A stretch of DNA of 64,000 nucleotides from an uncultured delta proteobacterium (GTDB lineage Bacteria > Myxococcota_A > Polyangia > Polyangiales > Houyiibacteriaceae). Location: NCBI GenBank assembly GCA_963792825.1, contig CAWBXS010000005.1, positions 226,308 to 290,307 on the forward strand. Direction: 5' to 3'. A program made the position numbers and the translations under genes. Positions 279 to 34,030 of this stretch are shown here, in pieces. Position 1 is the first letter of the stretch. Every line of letters begins with the position of its first letter. Below the pieces are notes generated by a model, which worked only from the letters and a program-made list of their open reading frames with translations, was not told where the DNA came from and did not search any database.

Positions 279-281
279 GCC

Positions 282-1091
282 TCAGTGTCCTTTCGGGCCC
301 TTCAGGCCGCTCGGCATCGTAAACGGCCAGTTGGAATCCACCGTCCCACCATCGACCTCGAGGATCTTGCCGGTCACCCAGCTCCCCGCATCGGAAAGCA
401 GATAGAGGGCCGCCGCACCGATGTCCTCGACGGTGCCGAGCCTTCGAAGCGGCGTCAGGTCTTCCATTTGCTTGGCGAGCGCTTTGTCGGCCGTCACCAT
501 CGCGAGCGCATCGGTCTGAGCCGCACCCACCGCAATCGCGTTCACGCGCACGTGCGGCGCCCATTCATTCGCGAGGAGGCGCGTCATGTGCGACATCGCG
601 GCCTTCGCGGTCCCATAGGCCACGAACCCATTTTCGACCAAGTGAGAAAGCCCGGATGTGATGTTGACGATCGCCCCATGCCCGCGCTCGGCCATCGACG
701 GCGCCAAGGCCCGTGACACGTGAAACGCGGTCGTCACGTTGAAGTGAAAGGACTTGTCGAGCTCCTGGTCCGTGCATGACAATGCCGGCCCAGGCAGGGT
801 CCCACCGGCGTTGTTCACCAGAAGGTCGACCCCGCCGAACTCGGCCATCGCGCGCTCGACGAGCCGGTCGAGCTGCTCCGTCGCCAGCACATCGGTGGGC
901 ACGACCAGCGCCCGCCTGCCGTTCTGCTCGATGATGCCGGCCACCTCTCGGAGTGTGTGCTCTCTGCGCGCAGCCAACACGACATGCGCTCCTGCCTCCG
1001 ACAGCGCAATGGCGATCCCCCGTCCGATGCCTCGGCCGGCCCCCGTCACCAAGGCCACCCGCCCATCCACCTTGAAGCGATCCAGAATCAT
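282..1091 (-). CDS. Short-chain dehydrogenase/reductase (SDR) family oxidoreductase
   Basis: MILDRFKVDGRVALVTGAGRGIGRGIA (TGxxxGxG Rossmann motif), NNAG, and YGTAKAA (YxxxK). The start is placed at the internal Met (1091), just before the Rossmann motif, rather than at the ORF-track Met at 1142. Confidence 0.9.
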   Translation of the reverse strand: MILDRFKVDGRVALVTGAGRGIGRGIAIALSEAGAHVVLAARREHTLREVAGIIEQNGRRALVVPTDVLATEQLDRLVERAMAEFGGVDLLVNNAGGTLPGPALSCTDQELDKSFHFNVTTAFHVSRALAPSMAERGHGAIVNITSGLSHLVENGFVAYGTAKAAMSHMTRLLANEWAPHVRVNAIAVGAAQTDALAMVTADKALAKQMEDLTPLRRLGTVEDIGAAALYLLSDAGSWVTGKILEVDGGTVDSNWPFTMPSGLKGPKGH

Positions 1092-1237
1092 GCGCGCCCA
1101 GCCTCCGGGCGGTACTGTCGGGCATTGGGGCGCCTTCCGCAACCGCTGCAGTCCTGAAAAGTGACCGGTTCGCGGCCGTTGTGGGGCGGGTGTCGGTTCC
1201 GTTGACCTGATTCGTCGGCTCCCGTACTTTCTCCTGA

Positions 1238-1993
1238 ATGACCTATTGCATTGCCGTCCGAGTCGATGAGGGGCTCGTGTTCGTGTCCGACTCCCGCACC
1301 AACGCGGGCGTCGACCACATCAGCACGTACGGAAAGATGCATACCTTCTGCGGGGACGGCACGCGCTTTTTCACACTGCTGAGCGCAGGCAATCTCGCAA
1401 CGAGCCGAGCCGTCGTCAATCGGCTCCAGCGCGACATCGAGGAAGAAGAGTCGATCAGCCTTCAAACGGTGGTGCGATTGACCGACGCGGCGGATTACGT
1501 CGGCCGCGTGAGCCACGAGGAGCAACAGAAGCACAAGAAGGGGGCCAAAGGTCAGGAGTTCAGCGCGGGCGCCAGCTTCATCTTGGGGGGACAGATTCAA
1601 GGGGCGCCGCATGCGGTCGTCCTGATCTATCCGGAGGGCAATTACATCCCGGTGTCTCGCCACTCGCCGTTTCTCCAGATCGGGGAGGAGAAGTACGGCA
1701 AGCCGATCCTGGATCGAATCATCAAACCGGACGTGAGCCTCGAGGTCGCCGGCCGCTGCGCGCTGGTGTCGATGGATTCCACGATGCGAAGCAATGCGAG
1801 CGTGGGCCCTCCGATCGACCTCTTGCTCTATACGGCCGGCACTCAGCGGCCCGGAAGACTCGTGAGCTTCGGCGAGGACGACGACTACTTGCGCGAGCTC
1901 CGCCGCGCCTGGCAGGAGAGCCTCAAGAAGGCCTTCAACGAGCTGCCGAAGCTCCCGTTCCCGGCCCAAGCCGTTCGATTGGTCGACGGTTAG
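1238..1993 (+). CDS. Anbu-type (ancestral beta subunit) proteasome-like Ntn peptidase
   Basis: The N-terminus MTYCIAVRVDEGLVFVSDSRTNAG has Thr directly after Met, the Ntn nucleophile position. The length is about 250 aa. It lies next to the ATP-grasp/alpha-E/transglutaminase genes that typically accompany Anbu. Confidence 0.8.
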   Translation: MTYCIAVRVDEGLVFVSDSRTNAGVDHISTYGKMHTFCGDGTRFFTLLSAGNLATSRAVVNRLQRDIEEEESISLQTVVRLTDAADYVGRVSHEEQQKHKKGAKGQEFSAGASFILGGQIQGAPHAVVLIYPEGNYIPVSRHSPFLQIGEEKYGKPILDRIIKPDVSLEVAGRCALVSMDSTMRSNASVGPPIDLLLYTAGTQRPGRLVSFGEDDDYLRELRRAWQESLKKAFNELPKLPFPAQAVRLVDG

Positions 1994-2002
1994 CCGCCGG
2001 GC

Positions 2003-4111
2003 TCACGCTGGTGTCTGTCTTCGAAGGTCGAGGGTGTACTCGCACTCCTCGGAATGCACCGGCTCACGCGGGCTGCAAGGAGCGCCGCGACGCTCGTCGG
2101 TAGGAAGCCACCTCTCCTTCTGGCGCTCTTTTGCTTCTGCGAGATCTCGCGGGGGGCCATCGTACGTCGAGCCGTCCGGCTTCCAGTAATAGTAACGCGC
2201 CGAGGCGAGGACCCGATCGGAGCGATCGACGGCCTCGATCTGCAAGGGCGACTGCACGGCGATGTGAGGATGGAGCGCGGGCCAGCCGCTCGCGGACTTG
2301 TAGCGTACCCCCGCCCCGAACCTCGGCCCGAGATCGCGCAGCCTCAGCGCGAATCCATTGACGACGATCCGGCGGTCGCGGAGCACAGCCTGATCGGCGA
2401 CCGAGATCTCGACGCGGTCGGTGGAGTTGTCGACGACGCGAGAGGTGGCTCCGCCATCGGCCATTTCCGCGAGGAGCGGCCAGGTCTCGAGCGCCTGCCT
2501 CACGAGCACGTCGCCTCCCTCGAGCGCGAGGCGCCCGAGGAGCGGAAAGCGGTGCTCGAAAACCGGTGCCAGCCAATGCAGGTCGAAGGCGAGCCCCGCC
2601 GCAGCCAACTCCTCACAGATGGCGCATAGATCGTGCCACAGAACGGTCGGCAGCATGAAGGCATCGTGCAAGCGAGCCCCGTGCCGGATCAGCGGGAGAG
2701 TGCATGGCTCGGCTGCGAGCATCGCTACGATCGCTCGAACGAACAGCGCCGAAAGCGACTGAAGGCTCACTTCGGGCATCGTTTCAAAGGCTCGGAGCTC
2801 GATCAAACCCTGGAGCCCGGTCGGCGAGTCGTAGTTCCAGAGCTTGTCGAGGCAGATCTCGGCCCGGTGCGTGTTGCCAGCGCTGTCCGTCATTAGGCTC
2901 CGGAAGAGGCGATCGAGGAAAACACGATCGGGCAATGCGGTCAGCCCATCGAGGGCCAAGCACGCCGTCTCGAGCTCGTAGAGCTTTCCGATCAGGGTCT
3001 CGTCCGCCCGAGGCGCCTGCGAGCCCGGGCCGACGTACTGACCCGAGAAGAAATAGGAGAGTGCGGGATGCCGCTGCCAATAGCGAAGAATGCTGCTGAC
3101 CAAGTCGGGGCGCTGAAAGAACGGGTTTTCGTCGAGCGTCGGACCCCCAAAGAGGACGTGCGCGCCCCCTCCTGTGCCCTGAACCTCCCCATTCAGATAA
3201 TAACGTGTGGTAAAAAGCCCTTCCGACTCCGCAGCCCGTGTGATGTTCTGAAGGACTCGGTCGTACTCCCGCCAGCGCCGGGCGGGTGGCAAGTTCACCT
3301 CGAGAACGCCGGGGTCCGCCGCGAGCCCCACCGAAGTGATCTCCGAGGCGTCCTCGGGCCGGTAGCCGCAGAGGACCAGCCGACGGGTGCCCGCGCCTAC
3401 GGCCACCCGCTCGAGCAGACTCGCGAGCGCAACGAATCCGTCGAGGCTCAGAGGCGGAAGGAAGAGATGGAGCGCACCCTCCTTGAGCTCGAGCGTAAAC
3501 GCACGCCGCAGATGCTGCTCATCGAGCTCGCCAAGCGGCAGGCGCACCCCGAGGGGACCTGTGCCTGGGACCAACACGATCGGCTCGGCTTCGGAGAACG
3601 GCCAGACGTCCGACACCCATCCCTCCGTCGTCCAGTCGAGCGGTAAGGCCCAACCGCGCGGGGTCTCCGCAGCGCCGTCTTTCTCGATGCACGGCAGCAC
3701 GTGCGACTCGAGCTCGAGCGCCTCGGCGATGGCGTTCATGAGCCGTCGAGCGTCGGGGTCGCGGTTTAGGGCGGGCTCGTCGTCGAGAAGGAGCAGCTCG
3801 GGATGACTCCACAGGGGAACGCCGTCGTCGCGATGAAGGAGGAGCACGACCCAGCGCGGAAGCGCTTCACCCGGATATTGCTTCCCATGCACCTGCATCA
3901 CCAACCCGCCGGGATAGCTCTCCCGAAGCAACCGTGCCGCGAGCCGCCGCGCGTATCCGAGCTTCTGCGACCCGATCGCACGTAGAGTCCATTCGGGCGT
4001 GTTCGGATTGCGAGGGATGAAGGTCGGCTCTCCGCCCATCGTGAGCGCGAGGCCTTGGGTGTCGAGGAGCGCCTCGACTGCCTCTTCGAGCGCGTCGACG
4101 TCGTCGGTCAC
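2003..4111 (-). CDS. DUF2126-type putative amidoligase (glutamine-synthetase-like; usually annotated 'transglutaminase family protein')
   Basis: LTMGGEPTFIPRNPNTPEW...HGKQYPGEALPRW matches the DUF2126 hallmark as I remember it. The start is assigned to the GTG at 4111, which overlaps the upstream TGA (GTGTGA, 4-nt GTGA overlap). The longer ORF-track N-terminus (to 4309) is Arg/Pro-rich and overlaps the upstream gene. Confidence 0.75.
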   Translation of the reverse strand: MTDDVDALEEAVEALLDTQGLALTMGGEPTFIPRNPNTPEWTLRAIGSQKLGYARRLAARLLRESYPGGLVMQVHGKQYPGEALPRWVVLLLHRDDGVPLWSHPELLLLDDEPALNRDPDARRLMNAIAEALELESHVLPCIEKDGAAETPRGWALPLDWTTEGWVSDVWPFSEAEPIVLVPGTGPLGVRLPLGELDEQHLRRAFTLELKEGALHLFLPPLSLDGFVALASLLERVAVGAGTRRLVLCGYRPEDASEITSVGLAADPGVLEVNLPPARRWREYDRVLQNITRAAESEGLFTTRYYLNGEVQGTGGGAHVLFGGPTLDENPFFQRPDLVSSILRYWQRHPALSYFFSGQYVGPGSQAPRADETLIGKLYELETACLALDGLTALPDRVFLDRLFRSLMTDSAGNTHRAEICLDKLWNYDSPTGLQGLIELRAFETMPEVSLQSLSALFVRAIVAMLAAEPCTLPLIRHGARLHDAFMLPTVLWHDLCAICEELAAAGLAFDLHWLAPVFEHRFPLLGRLALEGGDVLVRQALETWPLLAEMADGGATSRVVDNSTDRVEISVADQAVLRDRRIVVNGFALRLRDLGPRFGAGVRYKSASGWPALHPHIAVQSPLQIEAVDRSDRVLASARYYYWKPDGSTYDGPPRDLAEAKERQKERWLPTDERRGAPCSPREPVHSEECEYTLDLRRQTPA

Positions 4112-4992
4112 ACCGGCGCTTCCGTGATCTGTAAGGTCACGGTCATGTGCGAGTGGACCGTTCGTTGGGTCAGGTATTGCCCCTGCACTGGGTTCACCCA
4201 CTCCGGCCGATTGGCCACCGCCGACGGAAGAAAGCGGTGGTCGGTGAGAAGCCCGTTCGTCGGGTCGAAGCCGCGCCAACCGGCGCCCGGCAGGTACACC
4301 TCGGCCCACGCGTGCATCGAGCCGGCGGCGCGATTGAACGCCACGGCTCCGTCCGCAGGCGGAGGCTCATAGAGATACCCGCTCACGAAGCGAGCTGCGA
4401 GCCCGAGCTGCCGGCTGGTGGCGACGAAGAGCTCAGCCATGTCACGGCACGAGCCTTTGCCGAGCTCGAGCGTCTGGTTGGCGGTCCGCGTGCCTTCCTC
4501 GTCCCGGCGCTCGTAGGTGATGCTTCGATGGATGGCGAAGTTGAGGTCGGTCAGAAACGAAATCGTCTCTCGGGTCAGGTCGGAACCTCCGACTGCGCGC
4601 CGCACCCAGTCGAGCGTTCTCCAGCGGTCCGACTCGTCCGCTTCGAGGTACGGCCGAAGCGCGCTCCTCTCGCGGTCGTCGTAACGGAACGGGAACTGGC
4701 GCGCGCGGGCCTCGAGGATGAAGTCGAAAGGATTTTCTTCGACGACGTCGAACCGCATCCGGCAGTCAAAAGAGAGGAAGTCCGACTGCGCCGCGCCAAA
4801 GCTCACCACCGCGACGACGTTATTGAAGCAATCGCGCACCCACCGAACCTTGCCCTCGGGCTGGCACACGAGCGCAAAAGACTCGACGTGGATCGTCTGG
4901 CTCTCACGAGGGCGCAGATAGAGCGAGTGCTCACCGAAACCGACGGGTTGGTCGTAGCGATACTCGGTCAGGTGATCGACTGCGATCCGCAT
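4108..4992 (-). CDS. Transglutaminase family protein (Bact_transglu_N + transglutaminase core)
   Basis: MRIAVDHLTEYRYDQPV (N-terminal domain); GSCRDMAELFVATSRQLGLAARFVSGY ... HAWAEVYLPGAGWRGFDPTNG (Cys-His-Asp core). The start is at the internal Met (4992). Confidence 0.85.
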   Translation of the reverse strand: MRIAVDHLTEYRYDQPVGFGEHSLYLRPRESQTIHVESFALVCQPEGKVRWVRDCFNNVVAVVSFGAAQSDFLSFDCRMRFDVVEENPFDFILEARARQFPFRYDDRERSALRPYLEADESDRWRTLDWVRRAVGGSDLTRETISFLTDLNFAIHRSITYERRDEEGTRTANQTLELGKGSCRDMAELFVATSRQLGLAARFVSGYLYEPPPADGAVAFNRAAGSMHAWAEVYLPGAGWRGFDPTNGLLTDHRFLPSAVANRPEWVNPVQGQYLTQRTVHSHMTVTLQITEAPV

Positions 4993-5176
4993 GGCACTCG
5001 GAGTAGCAGGTTTCGCGGCCCCAGGTGATTTCCGTTCGATTTCACGGCGATTTCGAGGGCGCAACATCGACCCGACCGCGTCGGATGTGCGTGCCATGCC
5101 GGTCCGCTGGGGATATCGTCGGCTCACCGTGAAGAACGTCATCCGGTTTCCCACGCAGCTTCGCGCGGCACGAAAC

Positions 5177-6133
5177 ATGGCGCTCGACGGCTTGCGGTAC
5201 CGAAAGATTCACGGCTACCGGCGTGCGTACATTCACATGGGGAGCGGCCCCGCCGTGCTCTTGATCCATGGCATCGGCGACAGCGCGGACAGCTGGCTCG
5301 ATCTCATTCCGCCTCTCGCGCGCCGCCACACCGTCATCGCGCCCGACCTTCTCGGGCATGGCGATTCCGACAAACCTCGGGCCGACTACTCGCTCGCGGC
5401 CTATGCCAACGCGATGCGCGATCTGTTGAGCGTGCTCGACATCGAGCGGGTCACGGTCGTCGGGCATTCCCTGGGCGGCGGCGTAGCCATGCAGTTCGCG
5501 TATCAATATCCAGAGCGCTGCGAGCGGGTGGTGTTGGTCAGCAGCGGTGGGGTCAGTCACGAGGTGCATCCGATCCTGCGTTTCGTCTCGGCTCCCAATG
5601 CCGATCTGGTCTTGCCGCTGCTCGGGGCGCCAGGCGCCCGTCTGCTCGGCACCGCGGTGCTCGGCGCGCTGCGTAAGTTGAATACGGGCCTCGGCCGCGA
5701 TGCAGAATACCTGTCACGGCTCTTCGATGCACTGCCAGACGCCGCATCGCGGAGGGCATTCGTCCGAACCCTTCGGGCGGTCATCGATTGGCGTGGTCAG
5801 GCGATCACGATGTTAGACCGCTGTTATCTCACGCAAGGAATGCCCACGCTTCTGGTCTGGGGCGCCCGAGACGCGGTGATCCCCATCGCCCATGCGCACA
5901 AGGCCCATGCCGCGATGCCCGGCAGCAGGCTCGAGGTCTTCGCCGATGCCGGGCATTTCCCACACCAAAACGACCCCGAACGCTTCCTGTGCATCTTTCG
6001 GGAGTTCTACGAGAGCACGGACCCCAACTCGCATAGCGTCGAGGAATGGCGGGCGCTCCTCCGGAGGGGCCCTATTGCTGTACCTGACGCTGTGCGAGCG
6101 CTCCGGCCGGCGGCACCTCGTCAATCCGTGTGA
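5177..6133 (+). CDS. Alpha/beta-fold hydrolase
   Basis: AVLLIHGIGDSADSW (oxyanion region), the VVGHSLGGGVAMQ nucleophile elbow, and a C-terminal GHFPHQNDPE histidine motif. The start is at the Met of MALDGLRYRKIHGY (5177). The 3' end overlaps the convergent 6072..7910 gene by 62 nt. Confidence 0.85.
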   Translation: MALDGLRYRKIHGYRRAYIHMGSGPAVLLIHGIGDSADSWLDLIPPLARRHTVIAPDLLGHGDSDKPRADYSLAAYANAMRDLLSVLDIERVTVVGHSLGGGVAMQFAYQYPERCERVVLVSSGGVSHEVHPILRFVSAPNADLVLPLLGAPGARLLGTAVLGALRKLNTGLGRDAEYLSRLFDALPDAASRRAFVRTLRAVIDWRGQAITMLDRCYLTQGMPTLLVWGARDAVIPIAHAHKAHAAMPGSRLEVFADAGHFPHQNDPERFLCIFREFYESTDPNSHSVEEWRALLRRGPIAVPDAVRALRPAAPRQSV

Positions 6134-7910
6134 CTCGCACGGAGACCTCGAGCTTCTCGCCGTGACCTCCCGCGTATAGCGTCCCCGCCGTCGGCGTCGC
6201 ATCTCGGTAGTTGCGGCCCGCCGCGACCCGCACGTGATCGAGATCGACGAGACAGCCATTGGTCGGATCGAAACCGCGCCAGCCCACGGAGGGTAAATAC
6301 ACCTCCGCCCAAGCATGCGAGGCTTCCGACTGGATCTGATTGTGATAGGCCGCACCGGTGTGGATGTAGCCAACTCGGTAGCGAGCTGGGACGCCGAGCA
6401 GCCGCGCCAAGCAGATGAAGAGGTTTGCAAAGTCCTGACAGACGCCCTGCCGTTCCGTGTAGATTTCGAAGGGAGAGGTCTCGAGCGTGGTCTTGCCCGG
6501 GATGTACTTGAAGTCCCGGTGAAGCGCCTCGTTGAGATCGATCAGCGTCTCGAGCAAGTCGTTCGCGCGCCGAGCTGCAAAGCTCATGGCGAAGCCGGAC
6601 AGCTCGCGAAGCTCGGTCTCCGGAAGCTCCGGCGGCAACAAGAAAGGATTCATCATCTGGCGCTGCCAGGGCATCCAAACGAGCGGGATGCTGGCGCTCC
6701 GCAGCGCCGAGTGGGTTTCGACGTGATAGGTCGTGACCTTCGACCGCGCTTGGACCCAGAGCTCCGTGTAGGGCTGGCTGATTTGAAAGCTGAGCACGTG
6801 GTTTCCGAACACGTCCTCGTAGGAGAACGCCTGTCCGGGCGGCGAGATCTCGAGCACGTGCTCGACCACGTCTTGGGTGAGGTCCCGGACCGGCTGAAGC
6901 CGCACCGTGTGTGTCGACGTCTCGACAGGCGTGTCATAGCGGTAGACCGTCTCGTGGACGATCTCGTAGGTGCGCGACTTCGCGCTCAGCACCGGCAACG
7001 TGGGGGCCGGCATCGAAGGCTTTGGATGCCCTGACTGGGTCACGCTCGCTCGTGGCGCATTCGACCCCGATTGAACCCAAGAGGAGCCGGCCTTTCGCAC
7101 GGGCTCGCGCGCCTCCGGGGCGATACCCTCTCCAGTTTCAAGCAACTGCCCGCGGCTGATCACACGCATCTCGCCGGGCGCAAATTGAGACCAGGGCTCG
7201 CTCGAAAGCGGGCGCGTCGAAACGATCGTCAACGTGCGATTCTCGTCGACGGAGTTCGAGACGTCGAGCTCGAGCAGGTCGGACTCGAGCTTGGTCGAGG
7301 ATGGAGGAGGCAGCCGCCGAAGATGATGAAGCGCATTGAAACCGCTCCGGTCATGGTAGGCCACCACGTGCAAGCCATCGCTCCAAATCACGTTCAGCGT
7401 CCCGAGCTCGTTCAACTTCTGAAGCCAACCACGAACCCTCGACCAACCGACGTCACCGAGACTCCGGGCGCCGATGGCGCGCACCTGGCCCATCAGCCAG
7501 CAAAGGGCGTACTCGGAATCGGTGTGGCCGACCGGCTCGAATCCGAGTCCCTCGTCGAGAGGAAGCGTAAGGCTGAGATTCCGCCCGAGGTCGCCGTTGT
7601 GAGCGAAGATCCAGTCGCGCCCCGCGTGGCTCCGAACGAAGGGATGGGTGTCGGTGAACGACCGCCCTCGATGCGTGCCGCTGTGACACATGAAGATGCT
7701 CGAACGGAAGCGGTCCCATCGCTGCACCGCGGTCGCGACGGCCATGTCGTATTCGACGTGCGGATCTTTGAGCACCGAGGCACCAACACCGTCCCGAGGA
7801 TACCAAGCGAAGCCCCATCCATCAGGTCGGTTGCCCTTCTTGAAGCGGATCTTGGGCGAAGCCGCGCTGTCGTAGCAAATCGCGAGGAGGTCACTGTTGA
7901 GCTGCTGCAC
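6072..7910 (-). CDS. Fusion protein: class-II (Ntn) glutamine-amidotransferase-like domain + Bact_transglu_N + transglutaminase core
   Basis: The N-terminal half resembles YafJ-type GATase (DGWGFAWY, THPFVRSHAGRDWIFAHNGDL). The C-terminal half has YEIVHETVYRYDTPV and GVCQDFANLFICLARLLGVPARYRVGY...SHAWAEVYLPSVGWRGFDPTNG. The start overlaps the end of the alpha-E gene by 20 nt. Confidence 0.8.
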   Translation of the reverse strand: MQQLNSDLLAICYDSAASPKIRFKKGNRPDGWGFAWYPRDGVGASVLKDPHVEYDMAVATAVQRWDRFRSSIFMCHSGTHRGRSFTDTHPFVRSHAGRDWIFAHNGDLGRNLSLTLPLDEGLGFEPVGHTDSEYALCWLMGQVRAIGARSLGDVGWSRVRGWLQKLNELGTLNVIWSDGLHVVAYHDRSGFNALHHLRRLPPPSSTKLESDLLELDVSNSVDENRTLTIVSTRPLSSEPWSQFAPGEMRVISRGQLLETGEGIAPEAREPVRKAGSSWVQSGSNAPRASVTQSGHPKPSMPAPTLPVLSAKSRTYEIVHETVYRYDTPVETSTHTVRLQPVRDLTQDVVEHVLEISPPGQAFSYEDVFGNHVLSFQISQPYTELWVQARSKVTTYHVETHSALRSASIPLVWMPWQRQMMNPFLLPPELPETELRELSGFAMSFAARRANDLLETLIDLNEALHRDFKYIPGKTTLETSPFEIYTERQGVCQDFANLFICLARLLGVPARYRVGYIHTGAAYHNQIQSEASHAWAEVYLPSVGWRGFDPTNGCLVDLDHVRVAAGRNYRDATPTAGTLYAGGHGEKLEVSVRVTRIDEVPPAGALAQRQVQQ

Positions 7911-14760: not shown

Positions 14761-16266
14761 CTACGCGACTTGATTGGCCTGCGGCGGAGTCGATTCTCGA
14801 CCCCAAAGACGGCGGGCGTCGGGCTCCTGAGTGAGGAACGCATCCCAAAGATGCATCGCGGCATAGGCTCGCCAGGGCCGCCACGCATCCGCACGATGCT
14901 CGAGCTCAGCGGCCGAGACCCTGGTGCCGTTCTGCGCGACGGCTTTGCGAAGCCACGGGTTGTCGGAGGGAAAGGCATCGGGCTCACGATAGACGCGCAT
15001 CGCGATGTAATGCGCCGTCGTGGCGCTGAGGTCGGCGATCGAACGCAACCCTTCGACGGCAGATTCGAGCGACGGCGCGCCATCCAGCCGAATCGCGCCC
15101 TCGTGGACCGCCCTGGCAAGCGCCTGAATGGAACGGCTGCGGCGCGTCGGCACGCCGACCGCCTCGAGCCGTGCAGTGCTCAAGGCGTATGGTGTCGGAA
15201 ACACGTGGGTGAGTGAGGGCTGCGAAGTGTCGACGCGCTTGCCGTACTTCTCGACGATGCAATCCATGAGCTCAGACGCCTCATCGGGATGAATGTGTTG
15301 ATTGAGGAGCATCATCACGGCGGTCTCGAAGCGATCGAACGTGCCGAGCACACGCAGCCCCGGGGTTGCCTCGATGCGGGGGCCGAGCATCGGATCGGCG
15401 CTGAGGTGCGCGGTGATCACGTTCATCGGTGCGTCGACGTCGAACAGTCGCCGCACCCCGGACACCACGTCGAGCAAGTGCGCGCCAAGCGAGCTGCTCA
15501 CCCGGACACGCAGAGCGCTTTCATTGGGTTCGTAGGTCACGCAGAGCTCGCCGGCCACCTTTCCGAACGACGCGGTTCTGGAATATGAATCGCGGATGAC
15601 CCGCTCGACACCGGAAACCGTCCACGGCTCCAAGAAGCGCAGCATCCGAGCCCACGGGAAAGGGCCCTCGATGGGAATCTGGAGCTCGAGCTTGCTCGCA
15701 GCCCGATTCGGGCTTCTGCGGAGGGCCGTCGGGGGGCAACCGTAGACCTCGTTGATGACGGTGTTGAACCGGCGAACGCTGCCGAAGCCCGCGGCGCGGG
15801 CGATGTGGGCCATCGACAGGCTCGTGGTCTCGATCAGCCGTCGCGCAAAGTCCGCGCGGCGTATCCGCGCCACTTGAACCGGCGAGGTCCCTAGGTGTTG
15901 GTTGAAGAGGCGCCGAAGCTGACGCGCCCCAATCCCGAGGCGCTCGCACAGCGCGTCGATGTTCGCACCGTCGAGCATGCCATCCTCGATCAAGCGAAGC
16001 GCGCGGGAGACCGTTCCTGACGTCCCATTCGATGCGGGCGTACCAGGCTGCGCATCAGGCCGGCACCTGCGACACGGACGAAATCCGGCCGCCACCGCAT
16101 CAGCGGGCGCGTCGAAGCACACGACGTCCTCGGGGGCAGGCTTCTTCGCAGAGCAGCTCGGCTTACAATACACACCGGTCGTCGTGACACCCGCCACGAA
16201 GCGACCATCAAACCGAGCGTCTTTACTTAGAAACGCCTGGAGGTACTCAGGCGTGAAAACGGGCAT
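14761..16266 (-). CDS. Ada-like Zn-finger / AraC-HTH regulator fused to DNA-3-methyladenine glycosylase II (AlkA-like)
   Basis: FDGRFVAGVTTTGVYCKPSCSAKKP...FRPCRRCRP (Ada metal-binding domain), followed by an AraC-type HTH region and then an AlkA N-terminal + HhH-GPD-like C-terminal half. The start is at the internal Met (16266). Confidence 0.8.
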   Translation of the reverse strand: MPVFTPEYLQAFLSKDARFDGRFVAGVTTTGVYCKPSCSAKKPAPEDVVCFDAPADAVAAGFRPCRRCRPDAQPGTPASNGTSGTVSRALRLIEDGMLDGANIDALCERLGIGARQLRRLFNQHLGTSPVQVARIRRADFARRLIETTSLSMAHIARAAGFGSVRRFNTVINEVYGCPPTALRRSPNRAASKLELQIPIEGPFPWARMLRFLEPWTVSGVERVIRDSYSRTASFGKVAGELCVTYEPNESALRVRVSSSLGAHLLDVVSGVRRLFDVDAPMNVITAHLSADPMLGPRIEATPGLRVLGTFDRFETAVMMLLNQHIHPDEASELMDCIVEKYGKRVDTSQPSLTHVFPTPYALSTARLEAVGVPTRRSRSIQALARAVHEGAIRLDGAPSLESAVEGLRSIADLSATTAHYIAMRVYREPDAFPSDNPWLRKAVAQNGTRVSAAELEHRADAWRPWRAYAAMHLWDAFLTQEPDARRLWGRESTPPQANQVA

Positions 16267-16423
16267 AACGGGGATCTCAAGAGTAAACCCTTTTTCGGCG
16301 ATGTCGCTAGCACTTTTCGGACTTGTTTCGGATTTCGTGAGGTGACGCACCTACATCGGTGTGCGGGTCGGATTGGGTGAGGTAGCTTACAATTTTCAGG
16401 TCAGGCGCACGCGTAGTGCAATC

Positions 16424-19400
16424 TTACGTTGCAGTTAGGCAGTCCGGTGAGCAGCTGCCTGGGCTGCCGTCGTTCACGCCGTCGTCGCACACCTCGCCGG
16501 CGGTGGTGTTGACCGTACCATCGCCGCAGAAGGCAAAGGTGCAATCGGCGTCACACAACGCGGTCTCGCCGCCGGTGTCGCATTGCTCGCCTGCCGGACC
16601 ATTGGCGACCCCGTCGCCGCAGACCACAGCGGTGCAGTCGGTGTCGCAGGTCGCCGTCTGCCCGCCGTCGTCGCAGGTCTCGCCCGCCGTCACGTTGACC
16701 GTCGAATCGCCACAGACCGCCGGAGTGCAATTCAGGTCGCAGGTCGCGCTCTCGCCGCCGTCATCGCAGGCCTCGCCCGCGGTTGCATTCGCAACGCCGT
16801 CGCCGCAGGCCACCGCCGTGCAGTCGATGTCACAGGTCGCCGTCTCGCCACCCTGGTCGCAGGTCTCGCCCGCCGCCGCGTTGACGGTCAAATCGCCACA
16901 GACCGCAGGTGTGCAGTCCGCATCGCAGCTCGCGCTCTGACCTCCATCGTCGCAGGCCTCGCCCGCCGTCACGTTGACCGTCGAGTCGCCGCACACCGCC
17001 AGCGTGCAGTCGATGTCACAGGTCGCGCTCTGACCGCTGTCGTCACAGGCTTCACCCGCGGTGGCGTTGACTTTCCCGTCGCCGCACGCTGCGACCGTGC
17101 AATCGATGTTGCAGGAGCCGCTTTCGCCAGCTGTGTCACATGCCTCGCCAGCGGCCGCGTTCGGCGTGCCATCACCGCAGAACACGAAGGTGCAGTCGGC
17201 GTCACAGGTCGCGGTTTGGCCGCTCTCGTCGCATTGCTCGCCGGTCTCGACGAGACCATTGCCGCACGAGGCCGGCGCCGCGCAACCGGGCTCACACCGG
17301 CCGGGGCCCGTGCCGTCGTTGACACCATCGTCGCATACCTCGCCCGCTGCCGTGTTCAGAAGTCCATCGCCACAGACCGGCGCCGTACAATCGCTGTCGC
17401 AGGTCGCGCTCTCGCCGCCGGTGTCGCAGGTCTCGCCGCGCGTCGCGTTGATCGTCGAATCGCCGCAGAGCGCAGCCGTGCAATCGGCGTCGCAGGTCGC
17501 GCTCTCGCCACCGGTGTCACAGGTCTCGCCTGCCAGCGGATTCACGGTCGAGTCGCCGCAGACCGCTGGGGTGCAATCGGTGTCGCAGGTCGCGCTCTGA
17601 CCGCCGGTATCGCAGATCTCGCCGCGCGTCACGTTGATCGTGGAATCACCGCAGAGCGCCACGGTACAATCAGTATCGCACGTCGCGCTCTCGCCGCTGT
17701 CGTCGCAAGCCTCGCCCGCCGCACCATTGACGACCCCATCGCCGCAGGACGGGGCCGTGCAGTCCGCGTCACAGGTGGCGCTCTGGCCGCCGGTATCGCA
17801 CGTCTCACCAGCCAACGTGTTGACCACCGCATCGCCGCAAACAGGCAGGGTGCAGTCCGCATCGCAAGTCGCCGTCTGAATGGTTGTGTCGCAGTCCTCG
17901 CCCGCCAGCGCGTTGGTCAAGCCGTCACCGCAGGACGCCGCGGTACAGTCGTTGTCACACGTGGGGCTGAAGCCGCCGTCGTCGCACGTTTCTCCCGCCG
18001 CCGTATTCGCCACGTTGTCACCGCAAACCGGCAGGGTGCAGTCCGCGTCACAAGTCGCGGTCTGAACCGTGTCGTCGCAGTCCTCCCCGCGGGAGACGTT
18101 GGTCGTCCCGTCACCGCAGAAGGCGGTGGTGCAGTCGGTGTCACAGGTCGTGCTCTCGCCGCTCGCGTCGCACTGCTCGCCCGCCGTCACGTTCGTGACG
18201 CCGTCGCCGCATGCCGGCGCGGTGCAATCCACATCGCAAGTGGCGCTCTCGCCACTGTCGTCGCAGACCTCGCCTCTCGTCACGTTGACCGTTCCGTCGC
18301 CGCACGAAGCGAGGGTGCAATCGACGTCACACGCGGCGCTCTCTCCGCCTGCGTCGCATTCCTCGCCGGCCAAGGTGTTGGGCGTGCCGTCGCCGCAGAC
18401 CGGGAACGTGCAGTTGGCATCACAGGTCGCGGTTTGGCCGCCCTCGTCGCACTCCTCGCCCGTCTCGACGAGGCTGTTGCCGCAGTTTCCGGGCGCCGCA
18501 CAGCCGGGCTCGCACAGGCCGGGCCCCGTGCCGTCGTTGAAGCCATCGTCGCAAACCTCGCCCGCGGCGGTGTTCAAGAGACCGTCCCCGCAGACCGGCA
18601 GCGTGCAGTCGATGTCGCACGAGGCGGTCTGCCCCGCACCGTCGCATGCCTCGCCCGCTGCGATATTAGTCCGCCCGTCGCCACAGAGCACGGCCGTGCA
18701 GTCGATGTCGCACGTCGGAGTCTCACCGCCGGCGTCACAGGTCTCGCCTGCCGCGATGTTGAGCGTCGCGTCGCCACACACCGCCGGCGTGCAGTCGGCG
18801 TCGCAGGCCGCGGTCTCCCCGCCGCCGTCGCAGATCTCGCTCGCGGTGACGTTGAGTGTCCCGTCTCCACAGAACGCCACGGTGCAGTCGATGTCGCAGG
18901 TCGCGCTCTCGCCCGCATCGTCGCACTCTTCGGTGGTCTCGTTGAGGCCGTTGCCGCACTGAGCTGGCGCTGCGCATCCGGGCTCACACATTCCGGGGCC
19001 CGTGCCATCGTTCACGCCGTCGTCGCAGACCTCGCCGGCGCTGATGTTCAAGTAGCCGTCCCCGCAGACCACGTTCGTGCAATCGGGGTCACACGCCGCG
19101 CTTTCGCCCCCATCGTCGCAGATCTCGCCCGAGAGGACGTTCAGCAGACCGTCGCCGCAGACGGGCAGCGAACAGTCGACGTCGCAGCTCGCGCTCTGAC
19201 CGCTCGTGTCACAGACCTCGCCCGCGCTGATGTTGGTGAGACCGTCGCCGCATGCGGGAAGCGTGCAATCGGGGTCGCACGTCGCGCTCTCGCCGCCGTC
19301 GTCACAGGCTTCTCCCGCGGTGACGTTCCAGAGCGCGTCGCCGCAGATCACGTCGGTGCAGTCGACGTCGCAGGCTGCGCTCTCGCCTCCTGCGTCACAC

Positions 19401-28554: not shown

Positions 28555-28922
28555 TGTTTTCAAGCGGTGCTCAGGTCCGGTGTCCGGATTCAGCATCCGA
28601 TTGGAAGTTTTCGGACGTACGGTTGCACTGGCGACCCATTCAGGCGCGGACCGCAGCGCCGAGCCCATGGTCTGACGCGCTGCGCGGCACGCGTGTGATT
28701 TTTGCGACGGCGCAGGGATCTCCCGGGATTCATCGAGTGACACGCGGTGTGGGTGTTTTTGCACCACTGTGCGCGGCCTCACAAAAATTGCAAAAGACGT
28801 GTGGCCGACGTGTTTCCAGGTGTTGACTTTGCGAATCGTGTTGAGATAGCCACTCCAACGTGAACCCGTTTCAGACCGCTGCGCCCGGCGTAGCGAACTA
28901 TCCAATTCAAGGAGCGTAACGA

Positions 28923-31415
28923 ATGAGCAAGACACGATTTACCCCATGGATCGTGCTCGCATGTGTCACTGGCCTCGCAGCTTGTACGAGCGGCGGTGGT
29001 GGTACGGCGGGCAACACCGAGATGAATGTCATCGTCCCGAACGGTGCGCCTTCACTCGGCGGGGGGTCATCCGCCCCCGGTCTCATCGACATTACAACTG
29101 TCGAATATACCATCAACTGCCTCGGGAACAGCGATACGTTCCTAGACAACAACGCCAGCTTCCCCGACGAGGTCCAGATCAATGGTAACCTCGAAGTGGT
29201 CGACGGCCGGACGAGCCCCCAGGGCCCGATCCCGCCGGAGTTCGGCACCCCCCGCCCCGGCGACGGCGCGGAAATCTGGCAGGGCTTCATGGACCTGCCT
29301 CCCGGGCCCTGCACCGTGCAGCTTCGCGCGCGTGACGGCGACGGCGAGGTCATTTGTACCGCGACCGAGCCCTTCACCATCACGGCCGACTCGATCACCA
29401 AGGTCAACCTGGTGCTCATCTGTGACATCAGCTTCCAGGCTCCGGTCGGGATGCTCGACGTCGACGGCACCTTCAGCTTCAACGTCGGCAACTTCTGCCC
29501 CGACCTGTTCGTCCTGAACTGTGTCGACAGCGAGCCGGCCGAAGCCGATTACGGCATTGGCATTCCGATTGCGGCCACCTCCTGCGAGGTGCGTTTCCGT
29601 GACGGCGACAGCACGTGTGGCGCAGGCTGCGATCCGCAGAGCTGCACCGTGACGCCGGAAGGCCTGACCTGCGTTCCAGGTCCAGACCCAGGCGTCTCGA
29701 CGACCATCACCTGTGTCGGCGGCCAGGTCGACTGCGACGGCAACCCGCTCTCGACCGAGACCTCGTGCACCTTCTCCGGCGACACCACTGGCGTCGTTGG
29801 CGGTGGTCCGACCGCGCAACCGGGCACCTGGTTCGCAGGCTGCATCCCGCCGGCCCTCGGCGGCACCCCGGGTGCGATCGTCACCTGCACCGCGGTCACC
29901 ACGGACGGCGACCTCGACTGTGACAAGACCAAAGTGGTCAGCATCACCTGCCCAGGCCTCAGCCCTTGCGCGAACTTCGGCGCAGCCAACGGACAGACTG
30001 CTAACCAGGCGGGCGGCAACGCCGCTTGCGAGGCTGCAGCCGGAACGGTTTGCACGACCGACGTCTGCAACAACACCGGCTGCGACGGCGCCACGGCGGC
30101 TGCTTGCTGCACGAACACGCCGGTCGCGGACGGAACGAACTGCTCGGCGGAGCTCCCGCCCCTGGCCTCCTGCCAGGGTGGCGTTTGCCTGTCGGAATCC
30201 TGCACCAGCGACGCCGACTGCGAAGACCCGGCCACCGAGTGCTTGGTCGCTCCTCCCGGCGCGTGTAACCTTGGAACAGGTCTTTGCGGACCCGAGGTTC
30301 CTGTCGCGGACGGCACGTCGTGTAACGGCGGCGCTGGCACCTGTCAGTCTGGTACTTGCGCAGACAACTGCGCGGGCGTGGACTGCTCGGACGGCAACGA
30401 GTGTACGAACGACGTCTGCACCTCAGTCGGCGGCCCAACGTGCTCCAACCCGAACTCGGCCACTGGCACCCCGTGTAACGGCGGTCTCGGCAGCTGTGAC
30501 GGCGCGGGCGCCTGTGTCACCTTGATCGACTACCCGAACCAGAGCGCGGCGCTCACGGTTGGCTGTCGTAACAACGTCACCGCGGACATCTCGATCCTGC
30601 CGTTCTCGCTCGACGTGAACCCAGGTCCGATGGCGGCGGGTAGCGCGTTCACCGCGGTACTCGACGGTGTGGCGGCGTTCTCGGAGGCCTTCCTCGACGC
30701 GGCGCAAGCCGTCGTCCCGGGTGGCGTCAAGACCGGTCAGCTCATCGTGAGCAACGGCGGAGGCCTCGCGGCCACCGTCATCGCGACTGGTGCGGTCACC
30801 GGTGCGAACGTCCAGCTCGGACCGGACCCGGCATCGCTCAGCTCGCGCTGCGCGCTCACCGGTGTTCCTTGCACGGGCGCACCTGGCCTGGGCTCCTGCA
30901 CCTCGATCCCGGTCGTCAACAACAACTGCACGACAGGGTTCGTCGACATCCCGATCCTCTTCGGTATCGACACCGCCCCAGGTGGTTGTACACCGGCGAC
31001 CCCCGGGGTCCCGCCAGCTGCTTGTGACTGCTCACCCTGTGCAGCACTCGACACGGCTCCGGACACCACGAAGGCCAGCGAATGCGCTGCCAACGGCTTC
31101 TGCGTAACCGGCGACCTGCCGCTTCCGCTGAACGCCACCAACGGCAGCTACACCGCAGGCGCCACCTCGGGCCAGCCGATGTACTTCGATTGGCTGCAAC
31201 CCTACGGCCTCGACGTGGATGGCACGATCCTGCTCCCCGCAGCGGTCTTCTCGACCAACCCGGCTCCAGTCGGCGTGCGTGTGAGCGCTGGCGGTCTCTT
31301 CGTCGCACTTCAGTGCGCCGGAGCGGTCGACAGCGGTGGACCGGACGGTGTGGGCGTGCTCGACGACGCCTCCCCGACCCCGAACTCGTTGAAGAACACC
31401 TTCCTGGTTCCGTAA
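28923..31415 (+). CDS. Island paralog A1 (830 aa): lipobox + N-terminal module + multiple Cys-rich modules + conserved C-terminal family domain (...KNTFLVP*)
   Basis: AAGGAG RBS at 28909-28914. MSKTRFTPWIVLACVTGLAAC. The N-terminal module is near-identical at DNA level to the 31565 gene. It has CxDxNECTxDxC-type modules. The family domain starts near 30530 (LTVGCRNNVTADISILPF...). A terminator hairpin lies downstream. Confidence 0.85.
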   Translation: MSKTRFTPWIVLACVTGLAACTSGGGGTAGNTEMNVIVPNGAPSLGGGSSAPGLIDITTVEYTINCLGNSDTFLDNNASFPDEVQINGNLEVVDGRTSPQGPIPPEFGTPRPGDGAEIWQGFMDLPPGPCTVQLRARDGDGEVICTATEPFTITADSITKVNLVLICDISFQAPVGMLDVDGTFSFNVGNFCPDLFVLNCVDSEPAEADYGIGIPIAATSCEVRFRDGDSTCGAGCDPQSCTVTPEGLTCVPGPDPGVSTTITCVGGQVDCDGNPLSTETSCTFSGDTTGVVGGGPTAQPGTWFAGCIPPALGGTPGAIVTCTAVTTDGDLDCDKTKVVSITCPGLSPCANFGAANGQTANQAGGNAACEAAAGTVCTTDVCNNTGCDGATAAACCTNTPVADGTNCSAELPPLASCQGGVCLSESCTSDADCEDPATECLVAPPGACNLGTGLCGPEVPVADGTSCNGGAGTCQSGTCADNCAGVDCSDGNECTNDVCTSVGGPTCSNPNSATGTPCNGGLGSCDGAGACVTLIDYPNQSAALTVGCRNNVTADISILPFSLDVNPGPMAAGSAFTAVLDGVAAFSEAFLDAAQAVVPGGVKTGQLIVSNGGGLAATVIATGAVTGANVQLGPDPASLSSRCALTGVPCTGAPGLGSCTSIPVVNNNCTTGFVDIPILFGIDTAPGGCTPATPGVPPAACDCSPCAALDTAPDTTKASECAANGFCVTGDLPLPLNATNGSYTAGATSGQPMYFDWLQPYGLDVDGTILLPAAVFSTNPAPVGVRVSAGGLFVALQCAGAVDSGGPDGVGVLDDASPTPNSLKNTFLVP

Positions 31416-31487: not shown

Positions 31488-31564
31488 AATCACTTGCGCG
31501 TCTCGCTGAACGCGTGTTTGCATCGAGTCTCGTTCTCCCGCCCCACCCGTTTCGAAAAATCCCC

Positions 31565-34030
31565 ATGTTGTTTCGCCACGCCCGATGGATCGCCCTCGCC
31601 TGTCTCGGAGCTCTCGCATGCGCGGGCGTCGAGGAGGGGCTCGCGGGCAACACCGAGATGAATGTCATCGTCCCGAACGGTGCGCCTTCGCTCGGCGGGG
31701 GGTCATCCGCCCCCGGTCTCATCGACATTCAAACCGTCGAGTACACCATCAACTGCCTCGGGAACAGCGATACGTTCCTAGACAACCACCTGAGCTTCCC
31801 CGACGAGGTCCAGATCAATGGTAACCTCGAAGTGGTCGACGGCCGGACGGACCCCCAGGGCCGGATCCCGCCCGAGCTCGGCACCCCCCGCCCCGGCGAT
31901 GGCGCGGAAATCTGGCAGGGCTTCATGGACCTGCCTCCCGGCCCCTGCACCGTGCAGCTTCGTGCACGGGACGGCGACGGCGAGGTCATCTGTACGGCCA
32001 CCGAGCCTTTCAACATCACGGCCGACACGATCACCAAGGTCAACCTGGTGCTCATCTGTGACATCAGCTTCCAGGCTCCGGTCGGGATGCTCGACGTCGA
32101 CGGCACCTTCAGCTTCAACGTCGGCAACTTCTGCCCCGACCTGTTCGTCCTGAACTGTCCAGAGAAGAACCCCGCAAGGGCCACTTGCGAGGTGCGTTTT
32201 CGGGACGGCGACAGCAGTTGCGGCGCAGGCTGCGATCCGCAGAGCTGTGTCACGACGCCCGAGGGCCTGAGCTGCACGCCGGGCCCGGATCCAGGAATCT
32301 CCACCACGGTCACTTGCACCAATCTGCGGATCGACTGTGACGGCAGACCCAACACGACGGAGACCAGCTGTACCTTCAGCGGCGACACGCTCGGCACGGT
32401 GGGAGGCTCGGGCGAAGGCGCCTTCGATGTGTCCTGCATTCCGCCCGGTCTCGGCGGCATCCCCGGCGTGGTCGGTACCTGCACCGCGATCACGACCGAT
32501 GGCGACGAGGACTGCAACAAGTCCAAGACATTTGCAATCCGGTGCCCCGGCCCGAATGCGTGCGCGGAGCTCACGCAAGTCGTGGTCACTCCGCTTCAGG
32601 CAGTGATCGGTAATTCGATCAACCTTTCCGCTACGGCGTCGGACGTGCAAGGAGACCCGATCACCTACCTTTGGAGTGGAACCGGAGGCGTCTTCGCGGA
32701 TCCCACTGCCGCGTCGACCACGTACACCTGCGCCGAGGTGGGTCCGCACGACATCCAGATCGCCGTGTCGGACGACAATTTCACGAGCTGCGTGGCCGAG
32801 TTCACCGTTACGATTACCTGCCTAGCCCAGTGCACGACTGACGTCGAGTGCGACGACGGCAGCGACTGCACGGTCAACACCTGCAATACGGGTGCCGGTC
32901 TGTGCGAGACTGCCAACGTCAGCGCTGGCACGTCGTGTAACGGCGACACTGGCCTCTGCGATGGCGCAGGCGTCTGTGTCGACAACTGCACGGGCGTGGA
33001 CTGCTCGGACGGCAACGAGTGCACCGACGACGTCTGCACCTCGGTGGGCGGCGCCGTGTGTAGCAACCCGAGCTTGCCCTCTGGCACTTCGTGTGCCGGC
33101 GGCATCGGCGTCTGTAACGCCGCCGGTACGTGCGTGAGCATTGAGCCTCCGGTTCAAACCGCGGCCCTCATGGTCGGCTGTCGTGGCAATGTCACCTCCG
33201 ACGTCTCGATCCTGCCGTTTGATCTGACGGTCACGCCAGGTCTGATAACGGCAAACGCTCCGTTCACCGCGAGCCTCGACGGTGTGGCGTCTTTCTCGGA
33301 GGCCTTCCTCGACGCGGCGCAGGCCGTCGTCCCCGGTGGCGTCCGGAGGGGTCAGCTCATCACGACCAACGGCGGAGGCCTCGCGGCCACGGTGGCGGTC
33401 AGCGGCGCAGCGACCGGTGCAGACGTCCAACTCGGCCCAGACCCCGCATCGCTCCAGCAGCGCTGCGCGCTCACCGGTCTTCCCTGCACGGGCGCGCCCA
33501 ACCTCGGCACCTGCACCTCGATCCCGGTCGTCAACAACAACTGCACGACCGGCTTCGTGGACATCCCCATCATCAACGGAACCCCGCTCAGCGCGGGTGG
33601 TTGTACGCCGCCCGCAGCGGGCTCGCCGCCACCCGACTGTGACTGCTCGCCCTGTACGGCAATCGACCCGGCTCCTCTGACCACGAAGACGGACCAGTGT
33701 CTCGCCAACGGGTTCTGCGTAAACGGCGACCTGCCGCTTCCACTGCAGGCCGCAACTGGCACTTACACCGCAGGCGCCACCTCGGGCTCCCTGATGTACT
33801 TCGACTGGGTCCAGCCCTACGGCATCGACGTCGATGGCACGATCCTGCTCCCGGCAGCCACGTTCGCGGACCCGCCTGCCCCGGTCGGCGTCCGCGTGAG
33901 CGCTGGCGGTCTCTTCGTCGCGCTTCAGTGCGCCGGAGGCGTCGACAGCGGTGGACCGGACGGCGTGGGTGTGCCCGACGACGTCTCCCCGACCCCGAAC
34001 GCGAACAAGATCACCTTCTTGGTCCCGTAA
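31565..34030 (+). CDS. Island paralog A2 (about 821 aa): signal peptide + N-terminal module + PKD-like module + Cys-rich modules + conserved C-terminal family domain (...KITFLVP*)
   Basis: MLFRHARWIALACLGALACAG signal, with the start at the internal Met (31565). It carries a YLWSGTGGVFADPTAASTTYTC PKD-like module that A1 lacks. The family domain starts near 33160 (LMVGCRGNVTSDVSILPF...). Confidence 0.85.
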   Translation: MLFRHARWIALACLGALACAGVEEGLAGNTEMNVIVPNGAPSLGGGSSAPGLIDIQTVEYTINCLGNSDTFLDNHLSFPDEVQINGNLEVVDGRTDPQGRIPPELGTPRPGDGAEIWQGFMDLPPGPCTVQLRARDGDGEVICTATEPFNITADTITKVNLVLICDISFQAPVGMLDVDGTFSFNVGNFCPDLFVLNCPEKNPARATCEVRFRDGDSSCGAGCDPQSCVTTPEGLSCTPGPDPGISTTVTCTNLRIDCDGRPNTTETSCTFSGDTLGTVGGSGEGAFDVSCIPPGLGGIPGVVGTCTAITTDGDEDCNKSKTFAIRCPGPNACAELTQVVVTPLQAVIGNSINLSATASDVQGDPITYLWSGTGGVFADPTAASTTYTCAEVGPHDIQIAVSDDNFTSCVAEFTVTITCLAQCTTDVECDDGSDCTVNTCNTGAGLCETANVSAGTSCNGDTGLCDGAGVCVDNCTGVDCSDGNECTDDVCTSVGGAVCSNPSLPSGTSCAGGIGVCNAAGTCVSIEPPVQTAALMVGCRGNVTSDVSILPFDLTVTPGLITANAPFTASLDGVASFSEAFLDAAQAVVPGGVRRGQLITTNGGGLAATVAVSGAATGADVQLGPDPASLQQRCALTGLPCTGAPNLGTCTSIPVVNNNCTTGFVDIPIINGTPLSAGGCTPPAAGSPPPDCDCSPCTAIDPAPLTTKTDQCLANGFCVNGDLPLPLQAATGTYTAGATSGSLMYFDWVQPYGIDVDGTILLPAATFADPPAPVGVRVSAGGLFVALQCAGGVDSGGPDGVGVPDDVSPTPNANKITFLVP

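Follow-up and report, generated by a model that had tools for sequence, protein, structure and literature searches.

Repeats recorded as DUF4215, TIGR02232 and IPR011936 are four-cysteine, Asp/Glu-rich units of about 30-40 residues that start with CG[DN]G...E.CD and occur in tandem in exported proteins of Myxococcota; NCBIfam names the TIGR02232 family "cysteine-rich acidic repeat". A diatom adhesive-trail protein contains 12 DUF4215 repeats (bioRxiv 10.1101/2023.03.06.531300), and cysteine-rich surface proteins of Peregrinibacteria have been noted to be weakly similar to the Myxococcus repeat and to pappalysin-1 (PMC4736985). To this background we add a repeat lipoprotein gene from an uncultured delta proteobacterium (Polyangiales; Houyiibacteriaceae). 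The DNA analyzed, called the window below, is a stretch of 64,000 nucleotides (assembly GCA_963792825.1, contig CAWBXS010000005.1, positions 226,308 to 290,307 of the forward strand). The protein belongs to an abundant family that is annotated but unstudied, in which it is one of the long members, and represents no new biological system. Its dominant module is a variant that both DUF4215 and TIGR02232 miss.

The repeat array was parsed by cutting at each CG[DN], plus one CLDG, within residues 256-1510 of the open reading frame (ORF), and it splits into exactly 40 consecutive units. Every unit has four cysteines, 160 in the array (12.7%) and 169 in the whole protein. A preliminary description of this DNA had numbered the 40 units exactly, had placed a longer variant at units 7/8, 13/14, 18/19 and 31/32 and a truncated form at unit 40, and had given the correct block spacings of 6, 5, 13 and 9 units; its six cysteines per unit and total of about 240 were miscounts, and the consensus it printed itself has four. 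Twenty-nine of the 40 units, here called S, are 31 aa long with the spacing C-x12-C-x8-C-x3-C; the cysteines, G2, D3, N7, E12 and D15 are invariant, and G11, D24 and T28 nearly so. Canonical DUF4215/TIGR02232 units differ from these in being spaced C-x10-C-x11/12-C-x3-C and in carrying a CDDGN..GDGC signature that S units lack. Long units of 36 aa stand at positions 7, 13, 18 and 31, and in each case a CGN unit of 29-30 aa comes next; the truncated C-terminal unit 40 is a long-type unit of 34 aa. Units 1/2 form an additional, divergent long/short pair that the preliminary description did not contain. The array is acidic throughout (241 D+E vs 9 K+R; pI ~4). As a separate observation, an N-x-S/T sequon occurs at the invariant Asn7 in 15 of the 40 units, and N26-C-T28 is present in four S units.

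The arrangement of these units follows a simple grammar. Units were typed by their two halves, the first loop having either 12 residues (S) or 10-11 (canonical) and the second half either x8 (S) or x9 or more (canonical). S units are S in both halves; N units have a canonical first and an S second half; L units have an S first and a canonical second half; c units are canonical in both. The array is written in this notation as c + [N S4 L][N S4 L][N S3 L][N S11 L][N S7 L]. Each L unit is a chimera, and the array as a whole starts with a canonical first half and finishes with a canonical second half. Counts of adjacent units in 255 database proteins, the window locus not among them, gave the same picture. 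An N unit precedes the S-run in 188 of 295 cases, an L unit follows it in 229 of 264, and short arrays that are complete show the architecture of the window array elsewhere in the family too. The first loop of a unit tracks the second half of the unit before it (1115:48 after S-type, 421:769 after canonical halves; odds ratio 42), a statistic that treats non-independent units as independent, so that its significance is overstated. Because first-loop length follows the type of the previous unit's second half, we take the module that folds and evolves to begin at the second Cys of a written unit and to extend as far as the second Cys of its successor; the change at 18/19 described below, which replaces exactly one module in this register, agrees with it. 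Read in this register, each L/N pair becomes one canonical 34-aa module (CDDGxNDGTGPGxCEPGCxAPxxCGNxxxExxEx), five canonical modules of 32-34 aa are interspersed among S modules, and 34 of the 40 modules have S spacing.

The S unit falls outside the curated models of the family. The whole protein scored 28.8 bits against DUF4215 (PF13948; cut-off 27, E 1.6e-6), with no single stretch of it passing; when pieces were searched, units 1-2 alone reached 31.4 bits and were the sole piece to pass; the DUF4215 matches of the terminal unit and of the L/N pair lay under the threshold. With TIGR02232 (cut-off 20.8 bits) the whole protein had no match at E<=0.1, and the pieces stayed below the cut-off (units 1-2, 20.5 bits; L31+N32, 19.9; unit 40, 18.5). 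The 11-unit S-only segment (341 aa) was matched by neither model, even at E<=10. As controls, the canonical units of a relative (L002, see below) pass both models, TIGR02232 giving 38.8 bits with that relative and 28.8 with the neighboring gene in the window. When an S profile (A1) was aligned by hhalign to a canonical profile (A2), the two matched with 91.5% probability (E 8.6e-7, 26 aligned columns), S being longer by 2 residues in loop 1 and shorter by 3 in loop 2. Because the S unit finds no Pfam or NCBIfam match yet aligns with the canonical unit at this probability, we take it to be a homologous loop-length variant of the canonical Myxococcus repeat, outside both curated models. The earlier assignment to the Myxococcus cysteine-rich repeat is correct at the level of the superfamily, but does not extend to the dominant unit as either model defines it.

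Proteins with S units are abundant. A word-indexed homologue search with the 11 S units as query, in which the proteins listed were all shorter than 600 aa, returned 2,311 proteins from Myxococcota, Nannocystaceae, Polyangiaceae and Paraliomyxa, many of them annotated "cysteine-rich repeat protein" or "DUF4215 domain-containing protein". On inspection these showed S arrays of about 5-10 units, lying between a signal or anchor on one side and a globular domain on the other. An exhaustive HMMER search with a 4-unit S profile (A3), which reached proteins of up to 6364 aa, yielded 8,665 cluster representatives at E<=0.001, with 1,164 of them at E<=1e-30; repeat-number statistics drawn from the shorter listing would have misled. 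With a unit counter calibrated on known arrays of 40, 41 and 72 units, the median among the top 132 new matches was 13 units, and uninterrupted runs of 40 or more occurred in just two of them, P0263 (48) and P0147 (40). Exact S-spacing units number 32 in the closest orthologue and 29 in the window protein, the next protein having 15. Forty units are the upper tail of the family, in which few proteins reach 39-72. The scale that had first drawn attention to the array, 1255 aa, is accordingly large without being unique.

Orthologues were sought in species-representative genomes, where two loci were found (L001 and L002), and in metagenomes, which yielded L005 and a truncated locus, L003; a further one, L004, is the L001 contig. 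L001 belongs to Myxococcales bacterium SG8_38, is 75% identical in the N-terminal module and is syntenic with the window on both sides, for the RTX lipoprotein upstream and for the Ada/AlkA-like gene downstream. L005 is 60% identical in the same module, and L002, a Myxococcota metagenome-assembled genome (bin P01_B01_bin.105), 51%. The three full-length orthologues have the same cassette order with 40 (window), 41 (SG8_38) and 45 (L005) units. The S-runs are S4, S4, S16, S8 in SG8_38 and S4, S4, S16, S12 in L005, and cassette 5 is the most variable (S7 in the window, S8 and S12 in the others).

Junctions 7/8, 13/14 and 31/32 stand at the same index in all three proteins. Junction 18/19 of the window falls in ordinary S sequence of both others, the run of three S units, the two junction units and the run of 11 adding up to their S16 (3 + 2 + 11 = 16). 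Units 14-17 and 21-23, which flank this junction, are positional orthologues in all three, and at 18/19 a 34-aa canonical module has taken the place of exactly one 31-aa S module, as read in the shifted register. Junction 18/19 is therefore a lineage-specific conversion. N19 is 85% identical to N32 at the DNA level, the junction module at 18 is 81% identical to that at 31, and unit 20 is altered towards unit 33; these three resemblances point to units 31-33 as the probable donor. More generally, DNA identity between window and SG8_38 units of the same index is 75.8% (background, 67.1%). The best SG8_38 match lies at the same index for 11 S units, all within 3-28 and mostly within 3-10; units 3-7 match the same index best, at 78-85%, and units 8-10 are positional orthologues at 78-86%. 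Units 28-38, in contrast, are closest to paralogues of their own array. Because the 5' units resemble same-index orthologues and the 3' units their own neighbors, unit turnover is concentrated in the 3' cassettes. In the SG8_38 gene itself (L001 9050..13720) units 36-38 are near-identical, with 37/38 at 94% DNA identity, which indicates a recent local amplification that has no counterpart in the window.

The units of the window array are old. The 29 S units have a mean DNA identity of 66.5% (sd 5), with a maximum of 86% for units 28/30 and mutual identities of 84-85% among units 35, 36 and 38. S paralogues show a median dN of 0.30 and dS of 1.23, and third-position identity is 52.5% vs 39% expected by composition. 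Low paralogue identity and a dS of about 1.2, together with the 64-70% matches of the 93-bp unit period found by Tandem Repeats Finder (TRF), bear out the earlier statement that the repeats are degenerate at the DNA level and old. The suggestion that they are diversifying is contradicted by a dN/dS of 0.105 for the array against its SG8_38 orthologue (910 codons, same-index units; 0.237 for the N-terminal module). By this measure the array is evidently under purifying selection, with every module kept intact.

The mechanical ORF of the gene (16424..20956, minus strand) has a TTG start and 1510 codons. An in-frame ATG at 20908 opens MSRRFIALVALLLALATAC, a signal of lipoprotein type, and since this signal and its Cys recur in homologues, the ATG is probably the true start. 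The lipobox Cys, residue 35 of the 1510-aa ORF, was read by eye and places the product among bacterial lipoproteins; the h-region and this Cys are kept in L001, L002 and the database protein P0096. Exact protein look-ups from both candidate starts (TTG and ATG) found no database record, and a promoter and terminator scan of 16000-23200 gave nothing above shuffle expectation. A single ORF, a conserved lipobox, the dN/dS of the array and synteny in SG8_38 together establish the gene, which comes from a marine-sediment myxobacterium, as real and conserved. The opposite strand has an Ala/Arg/Val/Gly-rich ORF of 1491 aa (16583..21058, plus) spanning the entire gene; it is apparently no gene but a shadow ORF that the GC-rich repeat gives rise to.

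The order of parts in the protein is lipobox, Ig-like sandwich, PKD domain and then the 40-module array, which runs to the C terminus with nothing beyond. AlphaFold2 (AF2) modeled the N-terminal 220 aa as two beta-sandwiches at a predicted local distance difference test (pLDDT) score of 75.6 (model m83a28d71f129). The second is a PKD domain (PF00801, 34.5 bits, cut-off 23.5, E 2.1e-8, aa 169-237), and the ColG PKD domain 4tn9 matches this part of the model with a TMt of 0.80. Pfam has no family for the first domain (aa ~47-140), and a fold search with the N-terminal model returned generic Ig/PKD matches without functional clue. As the preliminary description had it, the array is fused to N-terminal modules used by other lipoproteins of the region: the module is common to at least five other ORFs of the window, with paralogues at 53053..54270 (-), 36656..37948 (+), 31490..34027 (+) and 41806..43164 (+) (blastp E 2e-23 to 6e-8). 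The window thus appears, from these similarities, to be home to a lipoprotein-like gene family with a common Ig-like/PKD module. The module family is small, with 13 protein-database matches, all of them fragments on contigs of <=5.8 kb.

Four repeat units (27-30) were modeled with AF2 from a 78-row alignment of four-S windows taken from this protein and database matches. The model has a mean pLDDT of 97.3 and a predicted template-modeling (pTM) score of 0.77 and almost no secondary structure, each unit showing no more than isolated bridges and a helix of three residues (positions 8-10). A Foldseek search of the PDB gave 13 matches, of which the first five and four others were cryo-EM chains of PAPP-A or PAPP-A2.

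On balance, we favor the view that the protein is an acidic, disulfide-stapled and probably Ca2+-binding rod or fibril, lipid-anchored at the cell surface and grown by unit-scale exchange. It would be exported and anchored through its lipobox, with the Ig-like and PKD domains next to the anchor. Each module is predicted to form a compact knot of almost no secondary structure held by two disulfides, in which conserved Asp/Asn/Glu side chains probably coordinate Ca2+; forty of them in a row could make a long, stiff, polyanionic rod or fibril that projects from the membrane anchor and has a structural or adhesive role in the matrix or at the cell surface. Growth and remodeling of the array would be due to unequal exchange and gene conversion at the scale of units, acting chiefly on the 3' cassettes. 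Several results weigh against this view. With E-values of 1.4-6 the matches to PAPP-A lack significance (36-38 columns at 1.4-2.1 A rmsd and 30% identity, the matched PAPP-A segment being unreported), and hhalign gave 6% probability with the Notch1 Lin12-Notch repeats (LNR) A/B/C. Sequence searches of the PDB, for which the 4-unit S profile, the canonical profile and the full array served as queries, returned no more than a chance match to gp120 (E 4.2). The literature searched contains no experimentally assigned DUF4215 function. Finally, the globular domains are membrane-proximal and the end of the array is free, an arrangement that does not fit the logic of many shorter members, in which a stalk presents a distal domain.

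Because the Foldseek E-values exceed 1 and hhalign with Notch1 gave 6%, the resemblance of the S-unit model to PAPP-A LNR modules is a structural lead and does not suggest membership. LNR homology at the sequence level was rejected on the hhalign value and the lack of a Pfam Notch (LNR) match in the protein or its pieces. A bolder version, which we regard as rather doubtful, would make the S module an unrecognized bacterial subfamily of Ca2+-binding two-disulfide knots, similar in structure to pappalysin/Notch modules. The N-Sn-L cassettes would then be rigid S-rods with canonical joints, and the protein a segmented, N-anchored polyanionic surface fibril, the bacterial equivalent of fibrillin-like rods stiffened by Ca2+, in which gene conversion of modules would tune how many segments there are and how long they are.

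Other explanations were weighed against the surface rod. It is unlikely that the array is a passive spacer or ruler without binding of its own, for example one that docks the upstream RTX lipoprotein at its free canonical end. Such a role would suit the many shorter family members that place the array between anchor and globular domain, as well as the canonical halves at both ends of this array and the syntenic upstream gene that itself ends in a canonical unit. In this lipoprotein, however, the globular domains sit at the anchored end, a docking interaction between array and RTX lipoprotein is without evidence, and lengths of 40, 41 and 45 units in the orthologues disfavor a precise ruler.

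As to how the array came about, the preliminary description saw a super-repeat, and a true higher-order repeat would mean that whole multi-unit blocks (L-N-S-S-S...) were duplicated and then diverged. Such repeats do occur among the relatives: in the L002 protein (2..7900, 2632 aa), which shares the N-terminal module, 72 canonical units of 32-34 aa come after that module and are organized as a true higher-order repeat of four units (period 399 bp, 9.3 copies, score 2727, compared with 452 for the 99-bp period). In the window array TRF confirmed the 93-bp unit period and reported, besides a 186-bp period, a single 474-bp row of five units (18408-19408, 2.1 copies, 73% matches), and L units are 76-80% identical to one another and N units up to 85%, against a background of 66% for S units. 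Yet within the 474-bp copies the raised identity is confined to the L (78%) and N (74%) units, which carry the row, the S pairs being at background (15/20, 68%; 16/21, 66%; 17/22, 62%). S units at matched block positions are no closer than permuted ones (p = 0.64 forward, 0.30 backward), every block length differs, and boundary 18/19, missing in both orthologues, arose by replacement of a single module. The sole significant sub-period is a weak one of two units (offset-2 identity 0.705 vs 0.674, p = 0.0023). On the permutation values and the S pairs we rejected block duplication, which seems improbable; the punctuation seen in the preliminary description is real, and N-Sn-L cassettes account for it better.

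A metal-sequestering giant metallothionein-like protein, with 160 reduced thiolates binding Cu, Zn or Cd in the periplasm, would agree with the cysteine content, the strict spacing and the export of the protein, but is very improbable. Metallothioneins have C-x-C and C-C clusters, unlike the x12, x8, x3, x4 spacing and invariant D/N/E/G found here; AF2 predicts a compact fold very confidently from sequence covariation alone; the nearest solved folds are disulfide-bonded extracellular modules; and exported lipoproteins fold in an oxidizing compartment. An assembly artefact that inflated or scrambled the array in the metagenomic contig is scarcely credible: such arrays often break assemblies, as the fragmentary relatives of the N-terminal module and L003, which stops inside its array, attest, and the protein has no identical database record, but its longest exact internal repeat is 27 bp (none >=30 bp), which makes collapse or expansion very unlikely, and with a mean unit identity of 66% ordinary reads place the units uniquely, the frame is open across 1510 codons, and two independent full-length orthologues match the unit order by index up to unit 31.

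Table 1. Features of the repeat lipoprotein gene and its upstream neighbor (positions in the window)
Feature	Position	Strand	Remarks
Repeat lipoprotein, coding sequence	16424..20908	-	1494 aa from ATG; stop codon 16424-16426
Lipoprotein signal peptide	20852..20908	-	MSRRFIALVALLLALATA followed by C; read directly from sequence
N-terminal all-beta (Ig-like sandwich) domain 1	20537..20818	-	aa ~47-140; AF2 strands E12-E105, moderate pLDDT
PKD domain	20246..20464	-	aa 165-237; Pfam PF00801; AF2 pLDDT ~90
40-unit four-Cys repeat array	16427..20191	-	aa 256-1510, 1255 aa; TRF period 93 bp
Unit 1 (type c)	20096..20191	-	Canonical DUF4215-type (C-x10-C-x11-C-x2-C), array opener
Cassette 1, units 2-7	19529..20095	-	N, S x4, L
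Cassette 2, units 8-13	18959..19528	-	N with 1-aa insertion, S x4, L
Cassette 3, units 14-18	18485..18958	-	N, S x3, L; closing L18 specific to the window lineage
Junction 18/19	18443..18544	-	34-aa canonical module in C2 register (CDDGFNDGTGPGLCEPGCAAPGNCGNSLVETGEE)
Cassette 4, units 19-31	17267..18484	-	N, S x11, L; weak 2-unit sub-period, TRF period 186 bp
Cassette 5, units 32-40	16427..17266	-	N, S x7, terminal L-type cap
Upstream same-strand lipoprotein	21055..22857	-	600 aa; RTX repeats and one C-terminal canonical Cys-rich unit

The upstream lipoprotein matched Pfam HemolysinCabind (1.3e-8) and TIGR02232 (28.8 bits against the cut-off of 20.8), and it carries a Dicty_CTDC-like Cys motif. 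Its counterpart in SG8_38 lies at L001 7190..9004, so that the gene pair is syntenic. Its RTX repeats, which bind Ca2+, provide slender context for the role proposed for the array, as do the diatom adhesive-trail protein and the Peregrinibacteria surface proteins mentioned at the outset. Downstream of the repeat lipoprotein, 14761..16350 (-) encodes a 529-aa fusion of Ada_Zn_binding, AraC helix-turn-helix and AlkA_N domains; the SG8_38 counterpart (L001 13754..15148) has 464 aa and apparently lacks the Ada zinc domain, a difference that may reflect start-codon choice or assembly. Elsewhere in the window two large ORFs, 28920..31412 (+) and 31490..34027 (+), have 58 and 52 cysteines and one cysteine-repeat-like motif each. 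The first is without a Pfam family and the second has a weak PKD match only.

The locus is a clean example of how abundant, unstudied surface proteins of myxobacteria are built, some 8,700 clusters carrying the repeat. It exposes a gap in curated models, since the dominant 31-aa module escapes both of them, and a dedicated S-module HMM is warranted. That the folding and exchange unit is offset from the conventional CGDG register, and that arrays are assembled from N-Sn-L cassettes, should be useful for annotation, for the design of constructs for structure determination and Ca2+ binding, and for reading variation in repeat number.

Among structurally described modules, those of PAPP-A come closest to the S-unit model. 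In the PAPP-A/STC2 structure, LNR modules are spirals of ~30 residues with little secondary structure, two disulfides (1-3/2-4) and a Ca2+ held by Asp/Asn (PMC9579167). The S-unit model shares their size and lack of secondary structure; S units differ from PAPP-A and Notch LNRs in the Pfam, hhalign and Foldseek results given above. The cbEGF arrays of fibrillin and the thrombospondin type-3 repeats are Ca2+-rigidified rods of disulfide modules in the animal matrix. Like them, the array is a long tandem of small acidic modules with conserved Asp/Asn/Glu; the analogy is a functional one and implies no relationship in sequence or fold. The nearest relatives in architecture are other S-type arrays of Myxococcota (for example P0134, P0136, P0001 and P0003), which have S, N and L units in the same N-Sn-L grammar. 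One of them, P0134 (1709 aa), has 39 units and a MYXO-CTERM-like tail. Most other S-type arrays consist of ~4-15 units set between an anchor and a globular domain, whereas the window protein and its orthologues have 29-32 exact S units in an array that lies away from the anchor and has no domain after it.

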